Assembly: GCA_038143065.1 (NCBI GenBank)
Contig: JAYQLI010000035.1
Coordinates: forward strand, 64,001-128,000
DNA length: 64,000 nucleotides
DNA from: Rhodospirillales bacterium
Lineage (GTDB): Bacteria > Pseudomonadota > Alphaproteobacteria > Bin95
Reading direction: 5' to 3'
The first letter of the stretch is position 1; every line of letters begins with the position of its first letter. The position numbers were made by a program, and so were the translations under genes. The notes below the pieces were generated by a model, which did not search any database, had not been told where the DNA came from, and saw only the letters and a list, made by a program, of their open reading frames with translations. Below are positions 36,805-53,102 of the stretch, in pieces.

Positions 36805-38091
36805 ATGAATTTTAAAGATCAACTCGCATCCATCGCCCCGGCGTTTTCCTATAATAATGGGCACCTTGAGGCTGGGGGAGTAAACCTTTCAGAAGTGATT
36901 GAAGCAGCGAAGGGTCCTGTTTACGTCTATGCACTTGATTCGGTGTTAGAGAATTTTCTAGGTTTTAAAGAAGCCTTTTCCGGCCAGCCAACGCGGATTT
37001 GTTACGCTATGAAAGCGAATGATTGTGTGGCTATTTTAAAACTATTGTCGGATATGGGTTCAGGTGTCGATGTCGTATCAGGAGGTGAACTCGCTCTTGC
37101 GATGTCTGCGGGAGTTCCAGCAGATAAGATAGTCTTTTCCGGTGTAGGAAAGTCAGACAGTGAGTTGGCGCAGGCGGTGAATGCAGGCGTTATGCAAATC
37201 AACGTAGAAACTCCTTATGAACTAGGCCAACTTGCTAAGATTGCAAACTCAATGGGTAAAGAGGCACCGATTGCTCTACGGGTGAACCCAGATGTTGAAG
37301 CGGGAACACTGGACCAGATTTCAACCGGGCGAGCTACCGACAAGTTTGGGGTAGCTTATCGGGATGCTGCTCGCCTTTATATGGAGGCAGAAAAAACTTC
37401 GGGTCTGGCTCCTAAAGGTATTGCCATGCACATTGGATCACAAATTGGTGATACAGATTTTCTGGCAGCGGCTTGTGCAAAACTAAGGTCTTTGTGGGAA
37501 AGCTTGGCAACCTCTGGCGTAAAACTTGAGCGCTTCGATGTTGGCGGTGGATTAGGTATCCGATACAAAAATGAAGACCCTCCACTAGTGCAGGCTTATG
37601 CCGATACTATAAAAAAAGCCGTATCAGGATTGAACGCCGAAGTTGTTCTGGAGCCTGGACGTCGGATTGTTGGCCCGGCAGGGGTATTGCTCTCTACGGT
37701 AATATCTGTGAAGGAGGCCGCTGGTCGTCGTTTTGTCATTCTTGATGCAGCAATGAATGACTTAATTAGGCCTGCTTTGTACAAGGCCTGGCATGAGATT
37801 GTTCCGCTTACTGATCCTGGGGAAGTACAATGGACGCCAGCTGATGTTGTTGGCCCAGTCTGTGAATCTACTGATAAATTTGCCGATCAGCGTCCGCTGC
37901 CTCCATTGCTACCTGGAGACAAGGTGGCCTTTCTGGCAGCAGGCGCCTATGGGGCGGTTATGGGATCAGAATACAACAGTAGACCTAGAGCTGCCGAGGC
38001 AGTGGTTCGTGGGGGAAATTGGTCCTTCACTCGTAACCCTCGCACCTATGATGATATTATTCAGGAGCAGCATGCTCCATCTTGGCTGTGA
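36805..38091 (+). CDS. lysA: Diaminopimelate decarboxylase
   Basis: YAMKAN, DVVSGGE, HIGSQI, EPGR, GPVCES, AGAYG. Confidence 0.96.
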   Translation: MNFKDQLASIAPAFSYNNGHLEAGGVNLSEVIEAAKGPVYVYALDSVLENFLGFKEAFSGQPTRICYAMKANDCVAILKLLSDMGSGVDVVSGGELALAMSAGVPADKIVFSGVGKSDSELAQAVNAGVMQINVETPYELGQLAKIANSMGKEAPIALRVNPDVEAGTLDQISTGRATDKFGVAYRDAARLYMEAEKTSGLAPKGIAMHIGSQIGDTDFLAAACAKLRSLWESLATSGVKLERFDVGGGLGIRYKNEDPPLVQAYADTIKKAVSGLNAEVVLEPGRRIVGPAGVLLSTVISVKEAAGRRFVILDAAMNDLIRPALYKAWHEIVPLTDPGEVQWTPADVVGPVCESTDKFADQRPLPPLLPGDKVAFLAAGAYGAVMGSEYNSRPRAAEAVVRGGNWSFTRNPRTYDDIIQEQHAPSWL

Positions 38092-38108
38092 GAAATTTGG
38101 AGAGAGTT

Positions 38109-38889
38109 ATGGAAGATCGCATTTATCCCGAGCGTGTACTTGAAAGTGATACTACTCGAACCTTCGCAAATCGGGTGTCTGTGCGCTCCTACACCGATGA
38201 GCCTGTTACTGATGAGCAAGTTGATGCGGTATTGCAGGCAGCATTTCGAGCACCAACTTCCTCTAACATTCAGTCTTATAGCGTTATTGTTGTCCGAGAC
38301 CAGGAGGCGTTAGACCAACTCGCAGTAGTGACCTCCGGTCAAAAGCACGTTGCAAATGCCCCAGTTTTTCTCGCTTTCTGTGCAGACCTGACCCGTATTG
38401 ATAAAGCCATGCGAGACAGAGGCGGGAATATGGAGACAAATAATCTCGAAACAGGTTTAGTCTCCTCGATCGATGCAGCTCTTGTTGGAATGTCAGCCTA
38501 CATAGCTGCTGACCCTTGGTATGAAGGGTGTTATGATTGGCGCTGTCCGCAATAATGCCGCTGAAACTGCAAAAATTTTAGGTTTGCCCAAACGGGTCTA
38601 CTGCGTCTTTGGGATGGTACTAGGTTGGCCCGATAGCATTCCAAAGCAGAAGCCGCGAATGGAGCAGGACGCCGTGGTGCACTATGAGCAATACGGAAAG
38701 ACTATTGCTGGCGAAAAACTTGATCCAAAAGTAGATTCTTATGACAAGGCTCTGGCGGCTCACTACCGAAGTGTTGGAATGACAACCACAGATGATAGTT
38801 GGTCCCATGATGTTGCATAAAAGTTCATGCCTGAACCACGTGAAAACTTGCGAGCTGAATTAAAAAACCTTGGTTTTGATTTTCGTTAG
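38109..38889 (+). CDS. NfsA/FRP-family nitroreductase (frameshift near 38515; in-frame TAA 38818-38820)
   Basis: RVSVRSY, APTSSNIQSYS, IDAAL, IGAVRN, KPR; NfsA-like tail RENLRAELKNLGFDFR after the TAA. Confidence 0.85.
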
Positions 38890-40375: not shown

Positions 40376-41664
40376 ATGCAGACAAATTTTTCTATAGCGC
40401 AGCTTTCCGACCCTGATATGGCCGCTTCGGAGTCGATTCTGAGGTCGTGTGTTCACTGTGGGTTTTGCACTGCTACTTGCCCCACATACCTCCTTCTTGG
40501 CGATGAATTAGACAGCCCTAGAGGACGCATATATCAAATAAAAGATATGTTGGAGTCTGGTCTTCCAGCCCCAAAAACGGTCGTGAAGCACATTGATCGC
40601 TGTCTTTCATGCCTCTCATGTATGACGACATGCCCTTCAGGCGTTCATTATCAGCACTTAGTGGATCATGGCAGGGCGTACGTTAATAAGACCTTCCAGC
40701 GACCATTCTTTGATAGAGCCTTCCGTTCAATCCTTTCATGGGTTTTACCTTACCCAGATCGTTTTCGAGCAGCTTTAGTGCTTGCTTGGCTACTTCGTCC
40801 TTTTGGATCATTAGTTTCTGGGCGTGTAGGTGCGATGCTGCGCCTAGTGCCTAAACGGATTCCACCTCGCTCACCGATCGAAGGCCCCAAAGTCCACAAA
40901 ACAGAAGGTGCCACAGTTAAACGTGTGGCTCTGCTTGCGGGCTGTGCTCAACAGGTGCTTAGTCCTTCCATCAATGAATCTACAATTCGTCTACTCAATC
41001 GTCATGGAGTAGAGGTCGTTACAGCTAAAGGAGCAGGTTGCTGCGGTGCTCTTGTCCATCACATGGGCCGGGCAGAGGAGGGACACGAAGCTGCGCGTCG
41101 TAATGTTGATGCGTGGACGCGGGAAATCGAGGCTGACGGCTTAGATGCAATTATAATCAACGCCTCGGGTTGTGGCACAAGCGTGAAAGATTATGGTTTT
41201 ATGCTGCGGAATGACCCAGCGTATGCCAGCAATGCTGAGCGGGTTTCGGCAATAACTAGAGATATCGTTGAATTTATGTCGGACCTAGGTCTGCAAAATT
41301 CCAAGCCCCTAAGCCATTGAAATTGGCTTATCATTCAGCTTGCTCCATGCAGCACGGTCAGCAATTAAAAGATGAGCCTAAAGCGCTTCTAGAGGATGCA
41401 GGATTTCAGGTAGATACACCAGCAGAGTCTCATATCTGCTGCGGGTCAGCTGGGGTTTATAATATTATGCAACCCCAGTTTGCTGAGCAGTTAAAAGCCA
41501 GAAAAGCGGGTAACCTCTCACGTCTCAAACCTGATGTTGTAGTAGCAGGAAATATTGGTTGTATTAGCCAGTTGCAGGGAGCGATTGATGCGCCAGTGCT
41601 CCATACTGTTGAGTTGTTGGACTGGGCAACTGGTGGGCCAAAACCGGAAAAACTTGATTATTAA
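40376..41664 (+). CDS. glcF: Glycolate oxidase Fe-S subunit (frameshift near 41310)
   Basis: MQTNF, CVHCGFCTATCPTY, CLSCLSCMTTCPSGV, CCGA and CCGSAG cysteine-rich domains. Confidence 0.93.
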
Positions 41665-43211
41665 TCAGCGAGTTTTCGTACCCCTCCCCATAATGTATGA
41701 GGGGATTAAAGCCAGCGCCGCTACTACGGCCGTTAACATAAATGTGTCTTGGAAACCTTGTGTTTGTGCTTGCAGAAATACTGTTTGCCCAAGATAACTA
41801 ATTGCACCAGCTGATGACTCAATTGCGGACACACCGGACGCCTGCATTATGTTTACAATGTTAGACAAAGGTCTTGTGCAACTGCATTGTCTGGGGTTTG
41901 GCTCATTGTGATGGTTTGCGCATGATCAGCTGTTCGGCTTTCTAAAAATACCACCATTAGATTAACACCAGTCGCTCCGCCAAAAGTCCTTGCAAAATTT
42001 ATCAAACCTGCTCCCTGGCTTACTTGTTCTGGGCCAAGTGAACGCAGAGCCCCGGTATTTAATGAAGGAATTATCAATGACAAACCAAACCGGTTTACCA
42101 GCGTAAATAAGACAAAGATCCAGTATGGCGTGTTTGTATCTGCCACAGACATCAGAAGGAAGCCGAAGCCAAACCAAAATAAACCGGCCATGATAAGCAG
42201 ATGCGCTGGAAATCTATCTACAAGTCGGCCTGCAGTTGGGAACATGATTACCATCAATATCCCTGCTGGAATTAGAGCAACTCCTGCTTTTGTGGCTGAA
42301 AAGCCCTGGATGTCCTGCATAAAAACAGCAATGGCATAAATTGAGCCAAACATGCCAAAACCAAAAATAATCCCCACCAAAATTGCAGATGCAAATTGAG
42401 GATTTGTAAAAAGGCGGAGGTCTAGCATTGGCCACTTCGCAGTGAGCTGTCTGGCGATGAAAGCCAGCGTTGCTAAAGTACCAATAAAAAGCTCCAAAAT
42501 AATTCTATCGGAAGTCCACCCAAATCGCCTGCCGCTTGCGAGGCCATCAAGAACAAAGCCAAGGGCAAGAGCCATTAGGATCAGGCCAGTCCAGTCAAAA
42601 GGACGTGATGTGCCAGATCGACCAGCTGGCATGAAAGCTCCCCCAGCTACCATTGCGGCAAAGGCAAGAGGCAGAGGTATTAAAAAAACAAACCGCCAGC
42701 TAAGTTCGTCCTTCACAAATCCACCGATGGCAGGTCCAAGTCCCGGGGCCAAAACCACTCCGAGACTAAAAAGCCCCATGGCTGCTCCTCGTCGTTCCGG
42801 TGGAAAGACAGTAAAAATAATTGCCATAGTAAAGGGCTGCATTAATCCTGCACAAAATCCTTGAATGACGCGAGCCAGAATTACGGTTGAGTAATCGACT
42901 GCGGAAAATGCTAGGAATGAGCCTCCTACAAAAATTGCCATTGTTGCGAGAAATACTGTCCTCTGGCCAAAACGCTGTTGTAGCCAAGATGTGAGAAGCA
43001 TAGCTCCAGTCATTGAAGCGAAATATGCAGTTGAAAGCCATTGGGCTTTGTCTTGGCCAATACCAAAGGCCCCCATTACTGCAGGTACAGCTGTATTGAC
43101 GCTGGTAGACGAGAGCACCATACCGATCATTCCAATCAGTCCAGAGCCTGTCATGAGCCATCGCTCGGTCTCGGTAAATGCGGACCAACCTTGGTTTGCC
43201 GTAATAGCCAT
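41665..43211 (-). CDS. DHA2/EmrB-family efflux MFS (frameshift near 41865)
   Basis: RVIQGF, FPPERRGAAMG, APGLGPAIGG, FDWTG; many TM helices. Confidence 0.9.
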
Positions 43212-43252
43212 TAAATTAGAATGAGGGATAGTTGCGTTGCTTGAAGTAACTT

Positions 43253-44449
43253 TTAATTTCTGACGTCAATTTCTACTTCAACCATCATACCAGGAGAGAG
43301 ACGCTTTGGTTGTTTAGTGAACGCAATTTTGACTGGGATCCTTTGAGTGACCTTTGTAAAATTGCCACTTGGGTTTGGGGTTGGTAGAAGTGCAAATCTT
43401 GAAGTTGCCGCAGTTCCTATCTTCTCCACTTTCCCCATGAAGTTGTCGTCTGGATAGGCATCGACAGTAATATGGACAATCTGGTCAACGCTTAGACGGC
43501 GAACTTGTGTCTCTTTAATATTGGCTTCTACCCATACATTCTCAGGATTATGAAGCATTAGCACGCGCCGGCCTGGGCCTACGAATTCACCGTTTTCTAC
43601 GAAAACACGATCTATAATTCCGGGGATTGGTGCCCGAATAGAACGCTGGGCAATAAGTGCTTCTTGCCGAGCCATTCTAGCCATAAGCTCCGCTTCCTTA
43701 TGATCAAGAATAGCCAATTCGCTTTCTATGACCGACAACTCCCCTTTGTCAGCTTCTGCCTCTGCTGCTTCGCCACGTGAAGAGGCAATGTCTGCATCAG
43801 CGCGGCGAAGTTCACTTTCTAGTCGTGAAACTTCTGCCTCAGCTCGGTCTAGGCGAGAACGCGAAATAACGCGTCGATTAAAAAGACTTTGAAATCGATC
43901 AAACTCTTGTTTTGCAAGCTTTAATTCTGCAGCAAGGGCACTTCGCCGAGCTTGTTGTGCCTGAACTTCTGTTGCTCTTGTTTGTACTCTACTGTTTGTT
44001 TGTCGGGTAACCATGTCTGTTCGGGCTGCATACTCGGCCCTCTCGGCCTGAACGCCAGCGAGGGAGGCTTTCAGAGCGTCTAGCTCTAAGGCTTGGACTT
44101 TATTATCCACTTGAGCAAGGAGGGTGCCGGCCTCCACGGTGTCGCCGGACTCTACATTGAGTGCAACTAATAATCCTTCAACACGGCTGCCAACAGTAAT
44201 GTGATCAGTAGTAACTCGAGCGTCGTACTCATAAACGTGAGTCATTCGGCTCATTACCTCACGACCTGCAAAAATCATTGCTGCTACGGCGACAAGTCCA
44301 ATCGCAAAGTAACGCAAAGTTCTTTTTGGTCGGTGTCGTTGTGTTTTATTTGGGGTTGCCGATAGTGTACTTGAGTTAGCGTTATCCGCTGAACTTTGAG
44401 AGCTTGATAACGCATTTGTTTCTGAACCTTTTTCAGTGTCTTGTGCCAT
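43253..44449 (-). CDS. EmrA/HlyD membrane fusion protein
   Basis: IRAPIPG, WVEANIKET, SGNFTKVTQRIPVKI. Confidence 0.93.
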   Translation of the reverse strand: MAQDTEKGSETNALSSSQSSADNANSSTLSATPNKTQRHRPKRTLRYFAIGLVAVAAMIFAGREVMSRMTHVYEYDARVTTDHITVGSRVEGLLVALNVESGDTVEAGTLLAQVDNKVQALELDALKASLAGVQAERAEYAARTDMVTRQTNSRVQTRATEVQAQQARRSALAAELKLAKQEFDRFQSLFNRRVISRSRLDRAEAEVSRLESELRRADADIASSRGEAAEAEADKGELSVIESELAILDHKEAELMARMARQEALIAQRSIRAPIPGIIDRVFVENGEFVGPGRRVLMLHNPENVWVEANIKETQVRRLSVDQIVHITVDAYPDDNFMGKVEKIGTAATSRFALLPTPNPSGNFTKVTQRIPVKIAFTKQPKRLSPGMMVEVEIDVRN

Positions 44450-44909
44450 CAAGCATCTCCTTTGAGGTGGGGTGTAGAGAGACTTTCAAATCGACTTATC
44501 AATTGTGTAGTGAATTCAATCATTGCATTAACCTGCGCTGGGTCGAGGTCGCCGAGCACTTCTTGCCGAAGTTCAGCCGCAATAGTATCTACTTCTTGGA
44601 ATCGAGCCCGTCCGTGTTTGGTAAGGTGTATTAGGTTGGCTCGGCGGTCATCTGGATTTGGGTTGCGATCAACCAGGCCAGCTTCCTCTAACTGGTCAAT
44701 TTGGCGTACAAGTGTTGCACCTGAAATTCCCGCCCGCGCTGCAAGATCAAGCTGAGTTATTCCATCAACCTTGTCATTTAGGTGCATGAGCAAAATCCAA
44801 CGGGCTTGTGAGAGCCCAAGGGGCGCAATCTGTTGTCTAGTTCAGTCCGCCAGAGTCTTGCGAGAAGTCCAGTTTGTCTGCCCAAATTTGTTGGAGGATT
44901 GCGGGCCAT
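44449..44909 (-). CDS. MarR/SlyA-family regulator (frameshift near 44815)
   Basis: LARLWRTELDNRLRPLG/LSQARW, DQLEEAGLV, DDRRAN. Confidence 0.9.
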
Positions 44910-44929
44910 TACAGTTACTCTTTTATGAT

Positions 44930-44972
44930 CCTAATTATTAGCTACCTATATGTTAGTATCCTAATAATTAGG
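44930..44972. promoter_or_regulatory. Putative MarR/SlyA operator region
   Basis: Perfect 12-bp inverted repeat CCTAATTATTAG-N19-CTAATAATTAGG overlapping TTAG-N4-CTAA-type sites, 21 nt upstream of the MarR ATG. Confidence 0.65.
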
Positions 44973-45053
44973 GTGCAATTCAAGGAGGTCAACTCTCGCA
45001 AGCTTATTGTAGCCACTTAGTCGTTAATATGACCGCATCCTGATGCCGAGAAG

Positions 45054-45078
45054 TTTGTATGGCAGCTGCCATCACAAG
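45054..45078 (-). terminator. Hairpin downstream of the selenoprotein gene
   Basis: Perfect palindrome ATGGCAGCTGCCAT (45059-45072) with TTGT/ACAA extension; poor U-tract. Confidence 0.35.
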
Positions 45079-45098
45079 CATTCCGGGAAAAAATTATT

Positions 45099-45623
45099 TC
45101 ATTTATTCCCCGCCTGAATCCTCTCAAGAATTTTTGGCGCTGCTTCGAATGCAAGGGTCTTAAGCTCATCAGCAGTCTTATTTTGGATTGGGTGTGGCGT
45201 CCAAACAATTGCTGGAGCAAAACCCAATGCCTTACCTTGGGCTTCCGCTGCTTGTTGAAACTCCACTGTTGCTGTCGCACAGCCAGGGATCCCACGAACG
45301 TCGAGTTGGTGAATGTCATGCAAACTGCACGACGTACACGATCCTCAATCTGCTAAGGCTTCGACGACAATGTCACAACTTTCAACAATATCTTGCAGTA
45401 TAGATTCTGGTGCCGGTTTAGTATGCGTTGGCTTTTTAAATCTTATTGTTTTAACGCCTGCAGCCTGAATCAAGGGCTCTAGAGCGTCCATAAATTCATC
45501 AGAACGCTCTTTTGAGATAGATAAGAGACCGACAGTTTTTCCTGATATGTCGGGAGGAGGAGGGCGTCTTTCTCTGAGCGAAGAAGCGCTCTCTGCTGTA
45601 GGGTCTCGCATAGCATATGTCAT
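45099..45623 (-). CDS. UGSC-family selenoprotein, 174 aa, Sec at codon 93 (TGA 45347-45345)
   Basis: Two same-frame ORFs joined across one TGA: ...VVEALAD-U-GSCTSCSLHDIHQLDVRGIP...; SECIS-like hairpin follows. Confidence 0.9.
45307..45344 (-). promoter_or_regulatory. Bacterial SECIS-like hairpin
   Basis: UGA-11 nt-GUCGUGCA[GUU]UGCAUGAC; 8-bp stem with one G-U pair; G first in apical loop. Confidence 0.75.
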
Positions 45624-45627
45624 AGGT

Positions 45628-47069
45628 TCAATACTCCTCTAATGCTTGAGTTACCGGTCGAACTTCTGCATTGTTTCGTCCGCCGGTCCAACCACCAATA
45701 ATTGCTGACATCAAAGCTCCAGGCCCCCTGCTCTAACAACCAAAAGTCCGCCTGGATGAAATTTGTCGATCATCCCATTAGAGTCAGAGTACTTTTCTGC
45801 CTGAGCAGGCGTAATTCCAAGAGGGTGACCCGCACCTTCTAATATTTCTGATGTGGGACGCTTGAGAGCCTTATAAAGCCCATCTTCAATCTCTGCTCGG
45901 CCCCAACCATCTTTTCTGAAGATTTCATAGTGGTTAGGAGAAATGACTAGGATTGCATTGCCCCATCGTGCAAGTCGTGGGTGGTTAACGCTCCATAACT
46001 GCATTGCCATAGACTCACAGAGTTCTTCAGCTGTTCTACTTTTCTGGTCAACGAAGCCAGTTACGCCATCAGCATGGAATAGAGTGACCGCTGAAGCACC
46101 ACTGCTAACACCTCTTGCCTGAGCTAGTGGGATCCAATCCTCATCGCCTTCATCCTCCGCAAAGCAAAAAGTATATTTGCCAGGTTGTCCGAGGCACGCT
46201 CTGTCAATTTCTTGCGGACGACCGCCACCAACATTTCTGATAATCAATTGGAATGCACGCCCAATAGTGGCATTTGCTCGATTACCCTGGCCAAGAGCAT
46301 TTCCACCAGAATTCATGCCGATACGGCGTGAAATAGGGCCATTCACCAAGATAAGTGGGCCAGAGAATGCAAGGGTGCAAAGAAGTCCATGCATTGCAAA
46401 CTCTGGCTCAAGCGCTGCTTTCATGGCTCCAAGTAGCACAGGGAAGTATTCGGGGCGGCAGCCTGCCATAACGGCATTAACAGCAGCCTTTTCAACAGTG
46501 CAAGGAACAAGGTTTGGGGGAATTAATCCTATAATCTCGTCAGCTTTTCGGGTTGTACCCGCTAACATTCTTGCCACCCTTAAATCGGTGGGAGGTGTTA
46601 CTGGAAGGCCATCAGTCCAGCCTCGATCGAACGCTACCTCCATGGGATCATTGTCGTCATCGACTTCTATCGCGCGCGAATTAAGTACTATTTCACCTGC
46701 CTTAAGGGCTAGTCTTTCTACTGCTCCAGGGGCAACATTTAGAGCTCCGCAGCCTGGCATATTTTCAGGCATTGAAGCCCCAAGATTATCTATCCCAGTA
46801 ATTTCTCTCCAGTCGTTCTTATTCCAGCCATAGACGCGTGAAGTCTCTGTTGTTTGGTTGAATGCAATAACGGTTGGAACTATTTCAATTCTAAGCCTAT
46901 GACTTTCCAGCAATTCATCATCGTGGCGAGGGTTTAGGCCACGTGGAAACTCCGGTATGTCCTGAGTAATAACTTCAAGATCCAATCCTGCTGCACGCAT
47001 TTCCGCTAATGCAGGGACTGCTAGGCGGCACGTTGGACAATCTTCTTTAACAACCGCGACAAAACGCAT
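45628..47069 (-). CDS. Thioredoxin-like CxxC domain fused to uncharacterised domain; partner of the UGSC protein (frameshift near 45725)
   Basis: VKEDCPTC, EIVPT, PGCG linker, GWTDGLPVTPPT, NAVMAGC, GNRANATIGRA; tail GGPGALMSAIIGGW...EEY* ends 4 nt before the UGSC ATG. Confidence 0.8.
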
Positions 47070-51901: not shown

Positions 51902-53102
51902 ATGAAGATATCTGCCGTCGAAACTATTCTCTCAGATACCTACCCAAATGGTATTTGGGTCCGATTAGAAACTGATGAAGGTCTAGTAGGAGTTGGAGAG
52001 ACATTCCGAAATCCTAAAGCCACAGAAGCGTACATCCATGAAACTCTTGCTCCTTACTTACTTGGGCAAGATCCCTGTCAGCCCGAGTTACATCGCACAG
52101 CTTTCAATCGCCTACTTGGTAACCGGTTTCAGGGCTTCCCAACCCGCTCGATAGAACTACGAGGTAATTCTGCGGTTGATATAGCTCTTTGGGATTTAAT
52201 GGCCAAATCACTGGATGCCCCACTTTACAAGGTTTTAGGGGGTCCAGCTCATCAAACGCTTCCAGTTTATAATACCTGTGCAAGTGATGGTTATAATCTT
52301 GCTGCAAAGGTTATAGGTGACAGTCGCGCAGCAGGAGAAGGCGAGGACGACCTCGCTCTCCAAGTGAGTGATCCAGGACGTCTTGCCAGGTCACTTTTGG
52401 ATGACGGTATCACGGGCATGAAAATATGGCCCTACGATCGATTTGCTGCCAAGCATGATGGCTGGCACATAGATCGTGCAGATTTGGAAGAAGCAACTGA
52501 TGTTATTGCACAGATCCGAGATGCGGTTGGTGATAAAATTGAAATTATGCTTGAGTATCATGGGCTTTGGAGGTTGCCTGCAGCATTAGATATTGCCGAA
52601 GCTCTTGGCCAGTATCGAGTTTATTGGCATGAGGACCCAATTGATCTTTCTAACATCGCAGACCTGCGTCGCTACCGTGATGAAACAGGCGGCCGTGTAG
52701 CGGCTAGTGAAAATCTTGGGACAACTCGTTGGCTGCGTGACGCTTTAGTTGCCGGAGCTGTGGATGTAGTTCAGTTTGACATGGGCTGGGTTGGGGGCAT
52801 TTCCGAGGGTAAACGTATCCAAGCACTAGCCGAGGCCTTTGATCGTCCTATCGCCCCCTCATGATTGCGTCGGTCCCATCCTGTTTGCGGCTGACTGTCA
52901 TTTAGCCTTTGCGAGCCCCAATACTTTAACACAAGAGATTGTTCGCGCTTACCTGTCCGGCTGGTACCGTGACGTTGCCAGTGGTTTGCCAGAGGTGAAA
53001 TCAGGCCAATTACAGCTTCCTAAAGGTCCTGGCCATGGGGCGGATTTTGCTCCGGGATTTCTTGACGGAGATGGAATTAAAAGGAAGAAAAGCTGCATGT
53101 AA
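51902..53102 (+). CDS. Mandelate racemase/enolase-superfamily acid-sugar dehydratase (frameshift near 52858)
   Basis: GVGET, SAVDIALWD, MKIWP, EYH, EDP, ASE, HDC.GP. Confidence 0.88.

Follow-up and report, generated by a model that had tools for sequence, protein, structure and literature searches.

A UGSC-family selenoprotein of an aerobic alphaproteobacterium, its thioredoxin-bearing partner and a probable link to the Grd/Prd selenocysteine subunits

A 64,000-nucleotide stretch of a Rhodospirillales bacterium genome (contig JAYQLI010000035.1), referred to here as the window, was found to encode a selenoprotein of the UGSC family whose selenocysteine (Sec) module is, from sequence comparison, very probably homologous to that of the Grd/Prd Sec subunits. 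The gene is typical of the UGSC family, and the points that go beyond the published record are the Grd/Prd link, the fold and the near-constant partner. The reading we favor, and hold to be somewhat better than an even bet, is that the window protein is the catalytic Sec subunit of a two-part, thioredoxin-fed selenium reductase, that it shares ancestry with the Grd/Prd Sec subunits, and that the second subunit differs from that of Grd/Prd. Such a two-subunit reductase is suggested by the homologous motif, the constant second protein and the thioredoxin fused to that protein here. The locus contains the following features:

45099..45623, minus strand: UGSC-family selenoprotein gene, 174 aa with Sec93, read with UGA as Sec
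45099-45101, minus strand: TGA stop ending the UGSC gene
45102..45407, minus strand: residues about 73-169, with very probable homology to the Sec module at the C-terminal end of GrdB/F/H and PrdB
45315..45333, minus strand: SECIS-like hairpin with an 8-pair stem and a GUU loop that starts 19 bases past the UGA
45345..45347, minus strand: in-frame TGA, Sec93
45632..45638, minus strand: ribosome-binding site AGAGGAG, overlapping the last partner-gene codons, 9 bases upstream of the UGSC start
45628..47069, minus strand: partner gene, about 480 aa, with a thioredoxin-like domain (CPTC) and an Unknown_1 domain with two conserved cysteines
46791..47069, minus strand: thioredoxin-like domain of the partner, residues 1-93, found by TIGR01068 and by a structural match

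The active-site motif of the protein is D-U93-G-S-C96-T-S-C99-S-L-H102-D103. The peptide that the sequence-only reading had quoted is present as written on the minus strand, with the TGA at residue 93, and its opening DIVVEALAD begins at 45374. The range flagged in that reading, 45099-45360, lies on the minus strand and holds only the C-terminal half, from residue 88; the gene really runs from 45623 to 45099. Rfam, promoter and terminator scans of the window found nothing above chance.

Residue 93 is almost certainly Sec. The earlier claim of a selenoprotein was borne out by a conserved TGA, a hairpin, Cys homologues and the Sec machinery. TGA was kept at the Sec codon in all 18 related loci of the genome collection, and in each of them the frame stayed open for 78-88 codons past it. 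Cys occupied the site in 37 of 120 homologues listed (from 227 found), and the remaining 83 stopped just before it, as expected since gene callers stop at UGA. The hairpin showed a compensatory change, from a C-G pair to G-C, in one paralogue. Under a SECIS rule set beforehand (a loop beginning with G, 14-26 bases past the codon), such a loop was present in 28 of the 42 TGA copies versus 2 of the 8 others among 50 copies; with a looser loop rule, picked once the output was known and with the copies counted by eye, the figures were 41/42 and 1/8. The host genome encodes selA, selB, tRNA-Sec and selD, each above its model cut-off. A near-identical public contig differed by 2 letters over 44900-46412, neither of them in the Sec codon, and the TGA is therefore not a sequencing error. 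A reading in which the TGA either ends the protein or stems from an assembly error, with no selenoprotein made, could draw on the indel errors of this assembly, one of which lies within the partner gene. We consider this explanation scarcely credible given the 18 conserved TGA codons with their long open frames, the Cys homologues, the conserved hairpin, the full Sec machinery and the unchanged codon in the near-identical contig. The 35 bases from 45313 to 45347, which hold the UGA and the hairpin, were matched by otherwise unlike contigs in 4 of 4 sequencing runs. This indicates conservation at the DNA level among distant UGSC genes and makes the segment usable as a search probe.

Membership in the catalogued UGSC family follows from a full-length match to Pfam PF24696 (124.5 bits versus a gathering score of 25, E 6.5e-36), in which residues 5-169 aligned with model positions 2-170 of 172. 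NCBIfam NF041046 was spanned in full with 124.1 bits against a cut-off of 125 (E 4.5e-36), with Sec scored as Cys. The U-G-S-C motif, the UGA-encoded Sec, the SECIS-like hairpin and the Sec machinery were all computed from the DNA, and the gene also has the Unknown_1 association that belongs to the family. It shares with other UGSC genes the motif, the occurrence of Sec/Cys pairs, the aquatic hosts and the Unknown_1 partner, and nothing distinguishes it from them. Any newness of the protein that the sequence-only reading may have implied has to be given up, as the family was already described in 2007-2008. In the available portions of the papers cited here and below, UGSC is a selenoprotein without known function (PMC1976440), is placed among redox proteins lacking an assigned function (PMC2398784; PMC13188914) and is still uncharacterised in a 2026 review (PMC13188914). 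The 2008 survey counted 255 UGSC sequences (PMC2398784), and in ocean survey data UGSC accounted for 8.2% of selenoprotein genes (PMC9402790). The available UGSC literature held no statement of a link to Grd/Prd, and subscription journals or the texts of the PF24696 and NF041046 entries may hold one. UGSC is not mentioned in the main text, as available, of a paper on new selenoprotein families (bioRxiv 10.1101/2022.07.06.499078).

The homology to Grd/Prd became visible when many UGSC proteins were compared. By itself, the window protein gave GrdB (E 0.085) and GrdF (E 0.15) as its sole non-self rows against NCBIfam. Its scores of 11.7 bits for TIGR01917 and 10.6 bits for NF040794 lie far below the cut-offs of 602 and 800, and TIGR04483 (PrdB) gave no match at E<=1. 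A 52-sequence UGSC alignment was then used, made of the window protein, 4 homologues and 47 near-full-length single-domain matches chosen from 150 listed. When these 52 proteins were scanned singly against 18,950 NCBIfam models at E<=1, the non-self matches were GrdB in 35, GrdF in 22, the general Grd/Prd model TIGR01918 in 17, GrdH in 14 and PrdB in 4, with a best E of 2.9e-10 for the GrdB model; every other family had at most 2 matches.

True Grd/Prd genes were taken from Peptoclostridium acidaminophilum, Photobacterium, Acetoanaerobium and Enterococcus records. Against three GrdB-type sequences, hhalign gave the UGSC family a score of 53.5 (E 8e-8, probability 94.5) over 92 columns in which the Sec residues coincide, and against three PrdB sequences a probability of 71.7 over 46 columns. 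As controls, the reversed six-sequence Grd/Prd alignment scored 21.1, and 30 shuffles of its columns scored no more than 21.3. Masking residues 92-99 left a score of 34-43 and a probability of 53-84, and masking both the motif and GIP left a score of 23-30 and a probability of 4-19; the latter counts against the reading we favor. In the reverse direction, a profile of the six true Grd/Prd sequences was searched against 41,867 host reading frames, where PrdB-like genes ranked 1-3 and UGSC paralogues ranked 4th, 5th (the window gene, E 0.07), 6th and 9th. Single-sequence scores were weak throughout (E 0.085 in one direction, E 0.07-0.19 in the other), which also counts against that reading. The N-terminal 70 residues gave no significant alignment to Grd/Prd (probability 0.2-1.2); a forced global alignment placed strand 1 on strand 1 and needed an insertion of about 50 residues in Grd/Prd. 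UGSC lacks this insertion, so part of the Grd/Prd substrate site may be missing from it. UxxC was present in all 42 TGA copies and UxxCxxC in 31 of them, the same split as that between GrdB and PrdB. Taken together, these comparisons argue strongly for homologous Sec modules, and homology over the whole domain is plausible.

The sequence-only reading had likened the protein to a minimal GrdB. What stands is that the Sec-bearing half appears to share homology with GrdB/GrdF/GrdH/PrdB in their C-terminal part, U aligning to U; the relationship is remote, and the protein is not a Grd member. The GrdB motif had been given correctly, as the Peptoclostridium acidaminophilum genes read ILTST-U-GTCTRC, 11 residues, GIP, 5 residues, T and later PYP/PHP-LG. 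The gap-free spacing past Sec held for two of three GrdB-type genes and failed for the Photobacterium gene, which is one residue shorter. The proposed check against Pfam GRDB (PF07355) gave a match for none of the 52 UGSC proteins, but PF07355 matches end at model position 344-345 of 347. The model thus appears to stop at Sec, which makes it blind to the common part and the check uninformative.

Comparison with the known systems shows both likeness and difference. With GrdB/F/H (TIGR01917, NF040794, NF040795), UGSC shares UxxCxxC, the 11 residues, GIP, a later PHP-type motif and about 90 columns that appear homologous. GrdB, however, has about 436 residues compared to the 174 of UGSC, which lacks the N-terminal domain as well as the 50-residue insertion. 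GrdB systems also have a GrdE-type proprotein and GrdA, neither of which was found in the aerobic UGSC host, and the UGSC partner is unrelated to GrdE. The likeness to PrdB/PrdA (TIGR04483) lies in a small Sec subunit that works with a larger second subunit. In contrast to PrdB, no PrdA/pyruvoyl subunit was found in the UGSC host, electrons apparently arrive via the thioredoxin domain and not via PrdC, and the motif of the window protein is UxxCxxC whereas that of PrdB is UxxC only.

The host itself carries three PrdB-like selenoprotein genes, all on the minus strand (G000:C35:2092095-2093420, C35:1680933-1682081 and C35:2334955-2335846). Each has an in-frame TGA and a UxxC motif in an aerobic genome where no PrdA was found, and two of the three have a hairpin with a GU-containing loop past the TGA. 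A CoA-transferase-like gene comes after one of them, an arrangement that recurs in other alphaproteobacteria, some with Cys for Sec. These proteins resemble UGSC in being Sec-encoded and in their hhalign probability of 90 to UGSC. Unlike UGSC, they have kept the insertion of Grd/Prd, are matched by Pfam GRDB or TIGR01917 and lack an adjoining Unknown_1. In Peptoclostridium acidaminophilum (L064:142-2196, plus strand), a PrdA/PrdE-like region and a PrdB-like selenoprotein seem to share a single open frame, of which only the PrdB portion is annotated in the record.

The fold was examined with a predicted model (pLDDT 90.9, pTM 0.85), which consists of five strands alternating with five helices and places Sec where strand 3 ends and helix 3 starts. 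The model suggests a doubly wound alpha/beta, flavodoxin-like fold. A thioredoxin would carry CxxC past strand 1 and end in a beta-beta-alpha unit; in the model the motif lies past strand 3. The sequence-only reading had named a plain thioredoxin fold as the outcome that would speak against its comparison with GrdB, and the predicted order of elements does not fit thioredoxin. The matches listed in fold searches were flavodoxins, receiver domains and other doubly wound domains, with no thioredoxin and no Grd/Prd chain among them. The top match was chain H of 8s7v, a methyl-CoM reductase activation complex (Z 12.4, rmsd 3.2, 132 aligned); a de novo designed protein came within 1 of it at Z 11.5, and many common alpha/beta domains reached Z 9-10. 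By sequence, the PDB gave chance matches only for the window protein, the 52-sequence profile and a PrdB-like query, with no solved Grd/Prd chain, and a language-model atlas searched with a natural Cys homologue gave nothing usable beyond UGSC clusters. The UGSC literature terms the fold 'likely Trx-like' and gives the partner merely as an occasional fusion (PMC1976440; PMC2398784), in contrast to the flavodoxin-like prediction and the near-constant partner reported here.

The partner argues against calling the protein stand-alone, as the sequence-only reading had done. The intact partner gene ends 4 bases ahead of the UGSC start, and a partner is beside or fused to UGSC nearly everywhere. It was upstream of UGSC in all 18 close loci; 59 of 62 short loci had it on the strand of UGSC, and 39 of 40 wider loci had it within 2.5 kb of UGSC or fused to it, the remaining one lacking it. 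The short and wider loci are overlapping sets that include kin. Among the five host paralogues, two are UGSC-partner fusions. The window copy has a one-base assembly deletion near 45723, where three of four sequencing runs have the extra base and the fourth has no coverage; an intact homologue of 98% identity has 480 aa. Contigs from two metatranscriptomes cover UGSC and the partner, though contigs prove neither transcription nor a single transcript. Adjacency and fusion suggest that the two proteins may be in physical contact.

TIGR01068 matched 27 of 41 partner homologues (best E 1e-5), and the predicted thioredoxin domain had a structural match at Z 10.2 (rmsd 1.6, 84 aligned). The remainder was identified as Unknown_1 by its A-V-N-x-V-M-A-G-C-x-P motif, which is that of the Figure S1A alignment in PMC2398784. 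Among the 41 homologues, no Pfam or NCBIfam model matched the Unknown_1 part. C204 and C302 were each kept in 53 of 55 partner domains, and N198, R271, N279 and E305 were invariant. A relationship of the partner to GrdE/PrdA or to the N-terminal domain of GrdB was considered and rejected, since profile comparison gave a probability of at most 0.3. Thioredoxin-domain matches filled the partner fold lists; a Foldseek match to class I fumarate hydratase, at E 4e-4 and TM 0.21, is too weak to use. A search for longer fused forms found 1 match in 8,000 candidates and was crowded out by chance words.

Some copies depart from the usual arrangement. A seventh host gene with the partner domain (G000:C35:2590465-2591643, minus strand) has no UGSC match beside it and is divergent from a ring-hydroxylating dioxygenase-like pair. 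The UGSC-partner fusions at G000:C36:11348-12997 (minus strand) and L147 have Sec and both Cys replaced (D-G-G-T-A-A) and are possibly a non-redox or inactive branch; the host one adjoins UbiD-like and cyclase-like genes. At G000:C35:1740569-1744100 (minus strand), a paralogous UGSC with UxxC only and two tandem partner genes lie near F420-related genes and a pyridine-nucleotide disulfide reductase-like gene. The labels of the genes that adjoin this fusion and this locus were assigned by sequence reading.

The host is aerobic, as had been supposed, and its genome encodes an aa3-type cytochrome c oxidase subunit I. In line with the statement that the window has no other grd genes, PF09338 (GrdE/PrdA) and PF04723 (GrdA) gave no match in the whole genome, which is 97.6% complete, and each was detected in both of two control records. 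In the closest locus the UGSC protein was 97% identical, and the best DNA matches to the window came from estuary and marine metagenomes. UGSC was present in 43 of 401 sampled alphaproteobacterial genomes. All 24 genomes of the host family had it, at 2-6 copies each, nearly all with TGA. Cultured hosts include Paracoccus, Acidovorax, Arthrobacter and haloarchaea, some with natural Cys forms.

In an Arthrobacter plasmid, trxB, trxA, the partner and UGSC stand in one row. Among 44 diverse loci, the raw counts of recurring neighbors were 11 for short-chain dehydrogenases, 10 for luciferase-like oxygenases, 7 each for selA and selB, 6 each for CoA-transferases and TrxB-like genes and 5 for enoyl-CoA hydratases; these labels were given mostly by sequence reading and confirmed in part by a Pfam scan of 150 of 157 candidate neighbors. 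Three of the six TrxB-like genes were scanned and matched Pyr_redox_2. No recurring neighbor points to a single substrate. In L058 (Paracoccus), L121, L125, L126, L132, L155 and L156, UGSC and its partner lie among or near selA, selB and sometimes selD, and L126 has a GRDB-domain gene directly 3' of UGSC. Downstream in the window, on the same strand, are a MarR regulator, an EmrA-type adaptor and an EmrB-type MFS pump (41665-44941, minus strand). These were rejected as part of the UGSC system because they recur in only 3-4 of 59 loci. Window genes in overlapping frames at 38082-38820, 40376-41664, 41665-43211 and 51902-53102 appear split (nitroreductase-like, glycolate oxidase Fe-S subunit-like, EmrB and mandelate racemase-like), and the host selA match is interrupted by one TAA. 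All of these are probably assembly indel errors like that near 45723.

By analogy with the mechanism proposed for PrdB, the partner in the favored two-part reductase would bind and activate a small substrate at the subunit interface, replacing the pyruvoyl subunit. The selenolate of Sec93, where helix 3 begins, would attack the substrate and displace a leaving group, Cys96 would free the product and form a Se-S bond, and electrons would come back from thioredoxin reductase by way of the CPTC domain and either Cys99 or partner cysteines. Overall this would be a two-electron reductive cleavage. GrdA is the substrate donor of the acetyl-phosphate-forming GrdC/GrdD. Since GrdA was not found in the host, no acetyl phosphate would be expected. 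In the cycle proposed for PrdB, the selenolate attacks a substrate held by the second subunit, the selenoether is cleaved by a PrdB Cys and the Se-S bond is re-reduced (PMC3091704), without a GrdA step (PMC3091704; PMC11229817). PrdB activity needs both the second subunit and Sec (PMC11229817), and a review describes these steps as partly hypothetical (PMC10298544). Several divergent UGSC paralogues per genome point to several substrates. If the two-part reductase is correct, the chances seem about equal that it cleaves at carbon as Grd does (C-N+, C-S+ or C-halogen) and that it attacks S, O or N (sulfoxide, N-oxide or disulfide).

Further observations count against a two-part reductase. The partner has no similarity to GrdE/PrdA, which leaves substrate activation without an explanation. 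One of the seven host partner copies has no adjoining UGSC, Sec and both Cys are lost in 2 of 50 UGSC copies, 38 of the 44 diverse loci have no TrxB-like neighbor, and the commonest third gene occurs in at most 11 of the 44.

One alternative is that UGSC is a general thiol-type antioxidant or redox relay (a peroxide, disulfide or sulfoxide reductase), in which a Grd-derived module was reused and the partner serves as a relay or scaffold. The host is aerobic and no substrate-specific neighbor is conserved, reviews place UGSC with redox proteins (PMC2398784; PMC13188914), and a paper referenced by PMC3091704 names a GrdB peroxidase activity in its title. However, the 330-residue partner domain with its many invariant Asp, Asn, Arg, Lys and Glu goes beyond what a relay needs, and 2-6 divergent copies in every one of the 24 host-family genomes fit substrate specialization better. 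We regard this alternative as unlikely, though it carries more weight than the two that follow. It has also to be asked whether U93, C96, C99, H102 and D103 could be ligands in a metal, metalloid or iron-sulfur cluster subunit instead of supplying a redox nucleophile. The best fold match of the predicted model, 8s7v chain H, is probably Mmp7, judged by its length, and in Mmp7 the McrC-like domain ligates an Fe-S cluster via C143 and H84 (PMC12176620); D103 is kept in 46 of 50 copies. Yet the Z score of that match is tied within 1 by a designed protein and followed by common alpha/beta domains, no McrC/Mmp7 model was among the 25 families listed in Pfam and NCBIfam scans of the 52 members, and the third Cys is missing in 11 of 42 Sec copies, so that we find a cluster subunit improbable.

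Even less probable, in our view, is the idea that the protein is a minimal GrdB acting alone, which would cleave glycine, sarcosine or betaine at the C-N bond unaided. The homology and the motif spacing agree with it, and GrdB-like proteins can accept other substrates such as fluoroacetate (PMC10838667). The window protein nevertheless lacks the 200 N-terminal residues of GrdB as well as the insertion, it travels with a different partner, and GrdE/PrdA and GrdA were not found in the nearly complete genome. A bolder version of the favored two-part reductase can be stated as well, although we think it doubtful as a whole: UGSC and Unknown_1 could form a third, oxygen-tolerant branch of Grd/Prd, which would cleave organic compounds of sea or soil at a carbon-heteroatom bond (C-N+, C-S+ or C-halogen) via a selenoether, with a substrate-activating subunit of an undescribed type, no pyruvoyl group and thioredoxin as the donor.

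Grd/Prd chemistry, in which selenium attacks carbon, is known in anaerobic organisms. UGSC ranks among the most common selenoproteins of aquatic environments, and the 2026 review still gives it no function (PMC13188914). The link to Grd/Prd, the corrected fold and the near-constant, thioredoxin-bearing partner together give a testable lead on the role of this orphan family, and the natural Cys forms from cultured hosts should be easier to express. If the third-branch version were true, it would mean a catabolic role for a family that makes up about a twelfth of the selenoprotein genes in the ocean survey (PMC9402790).
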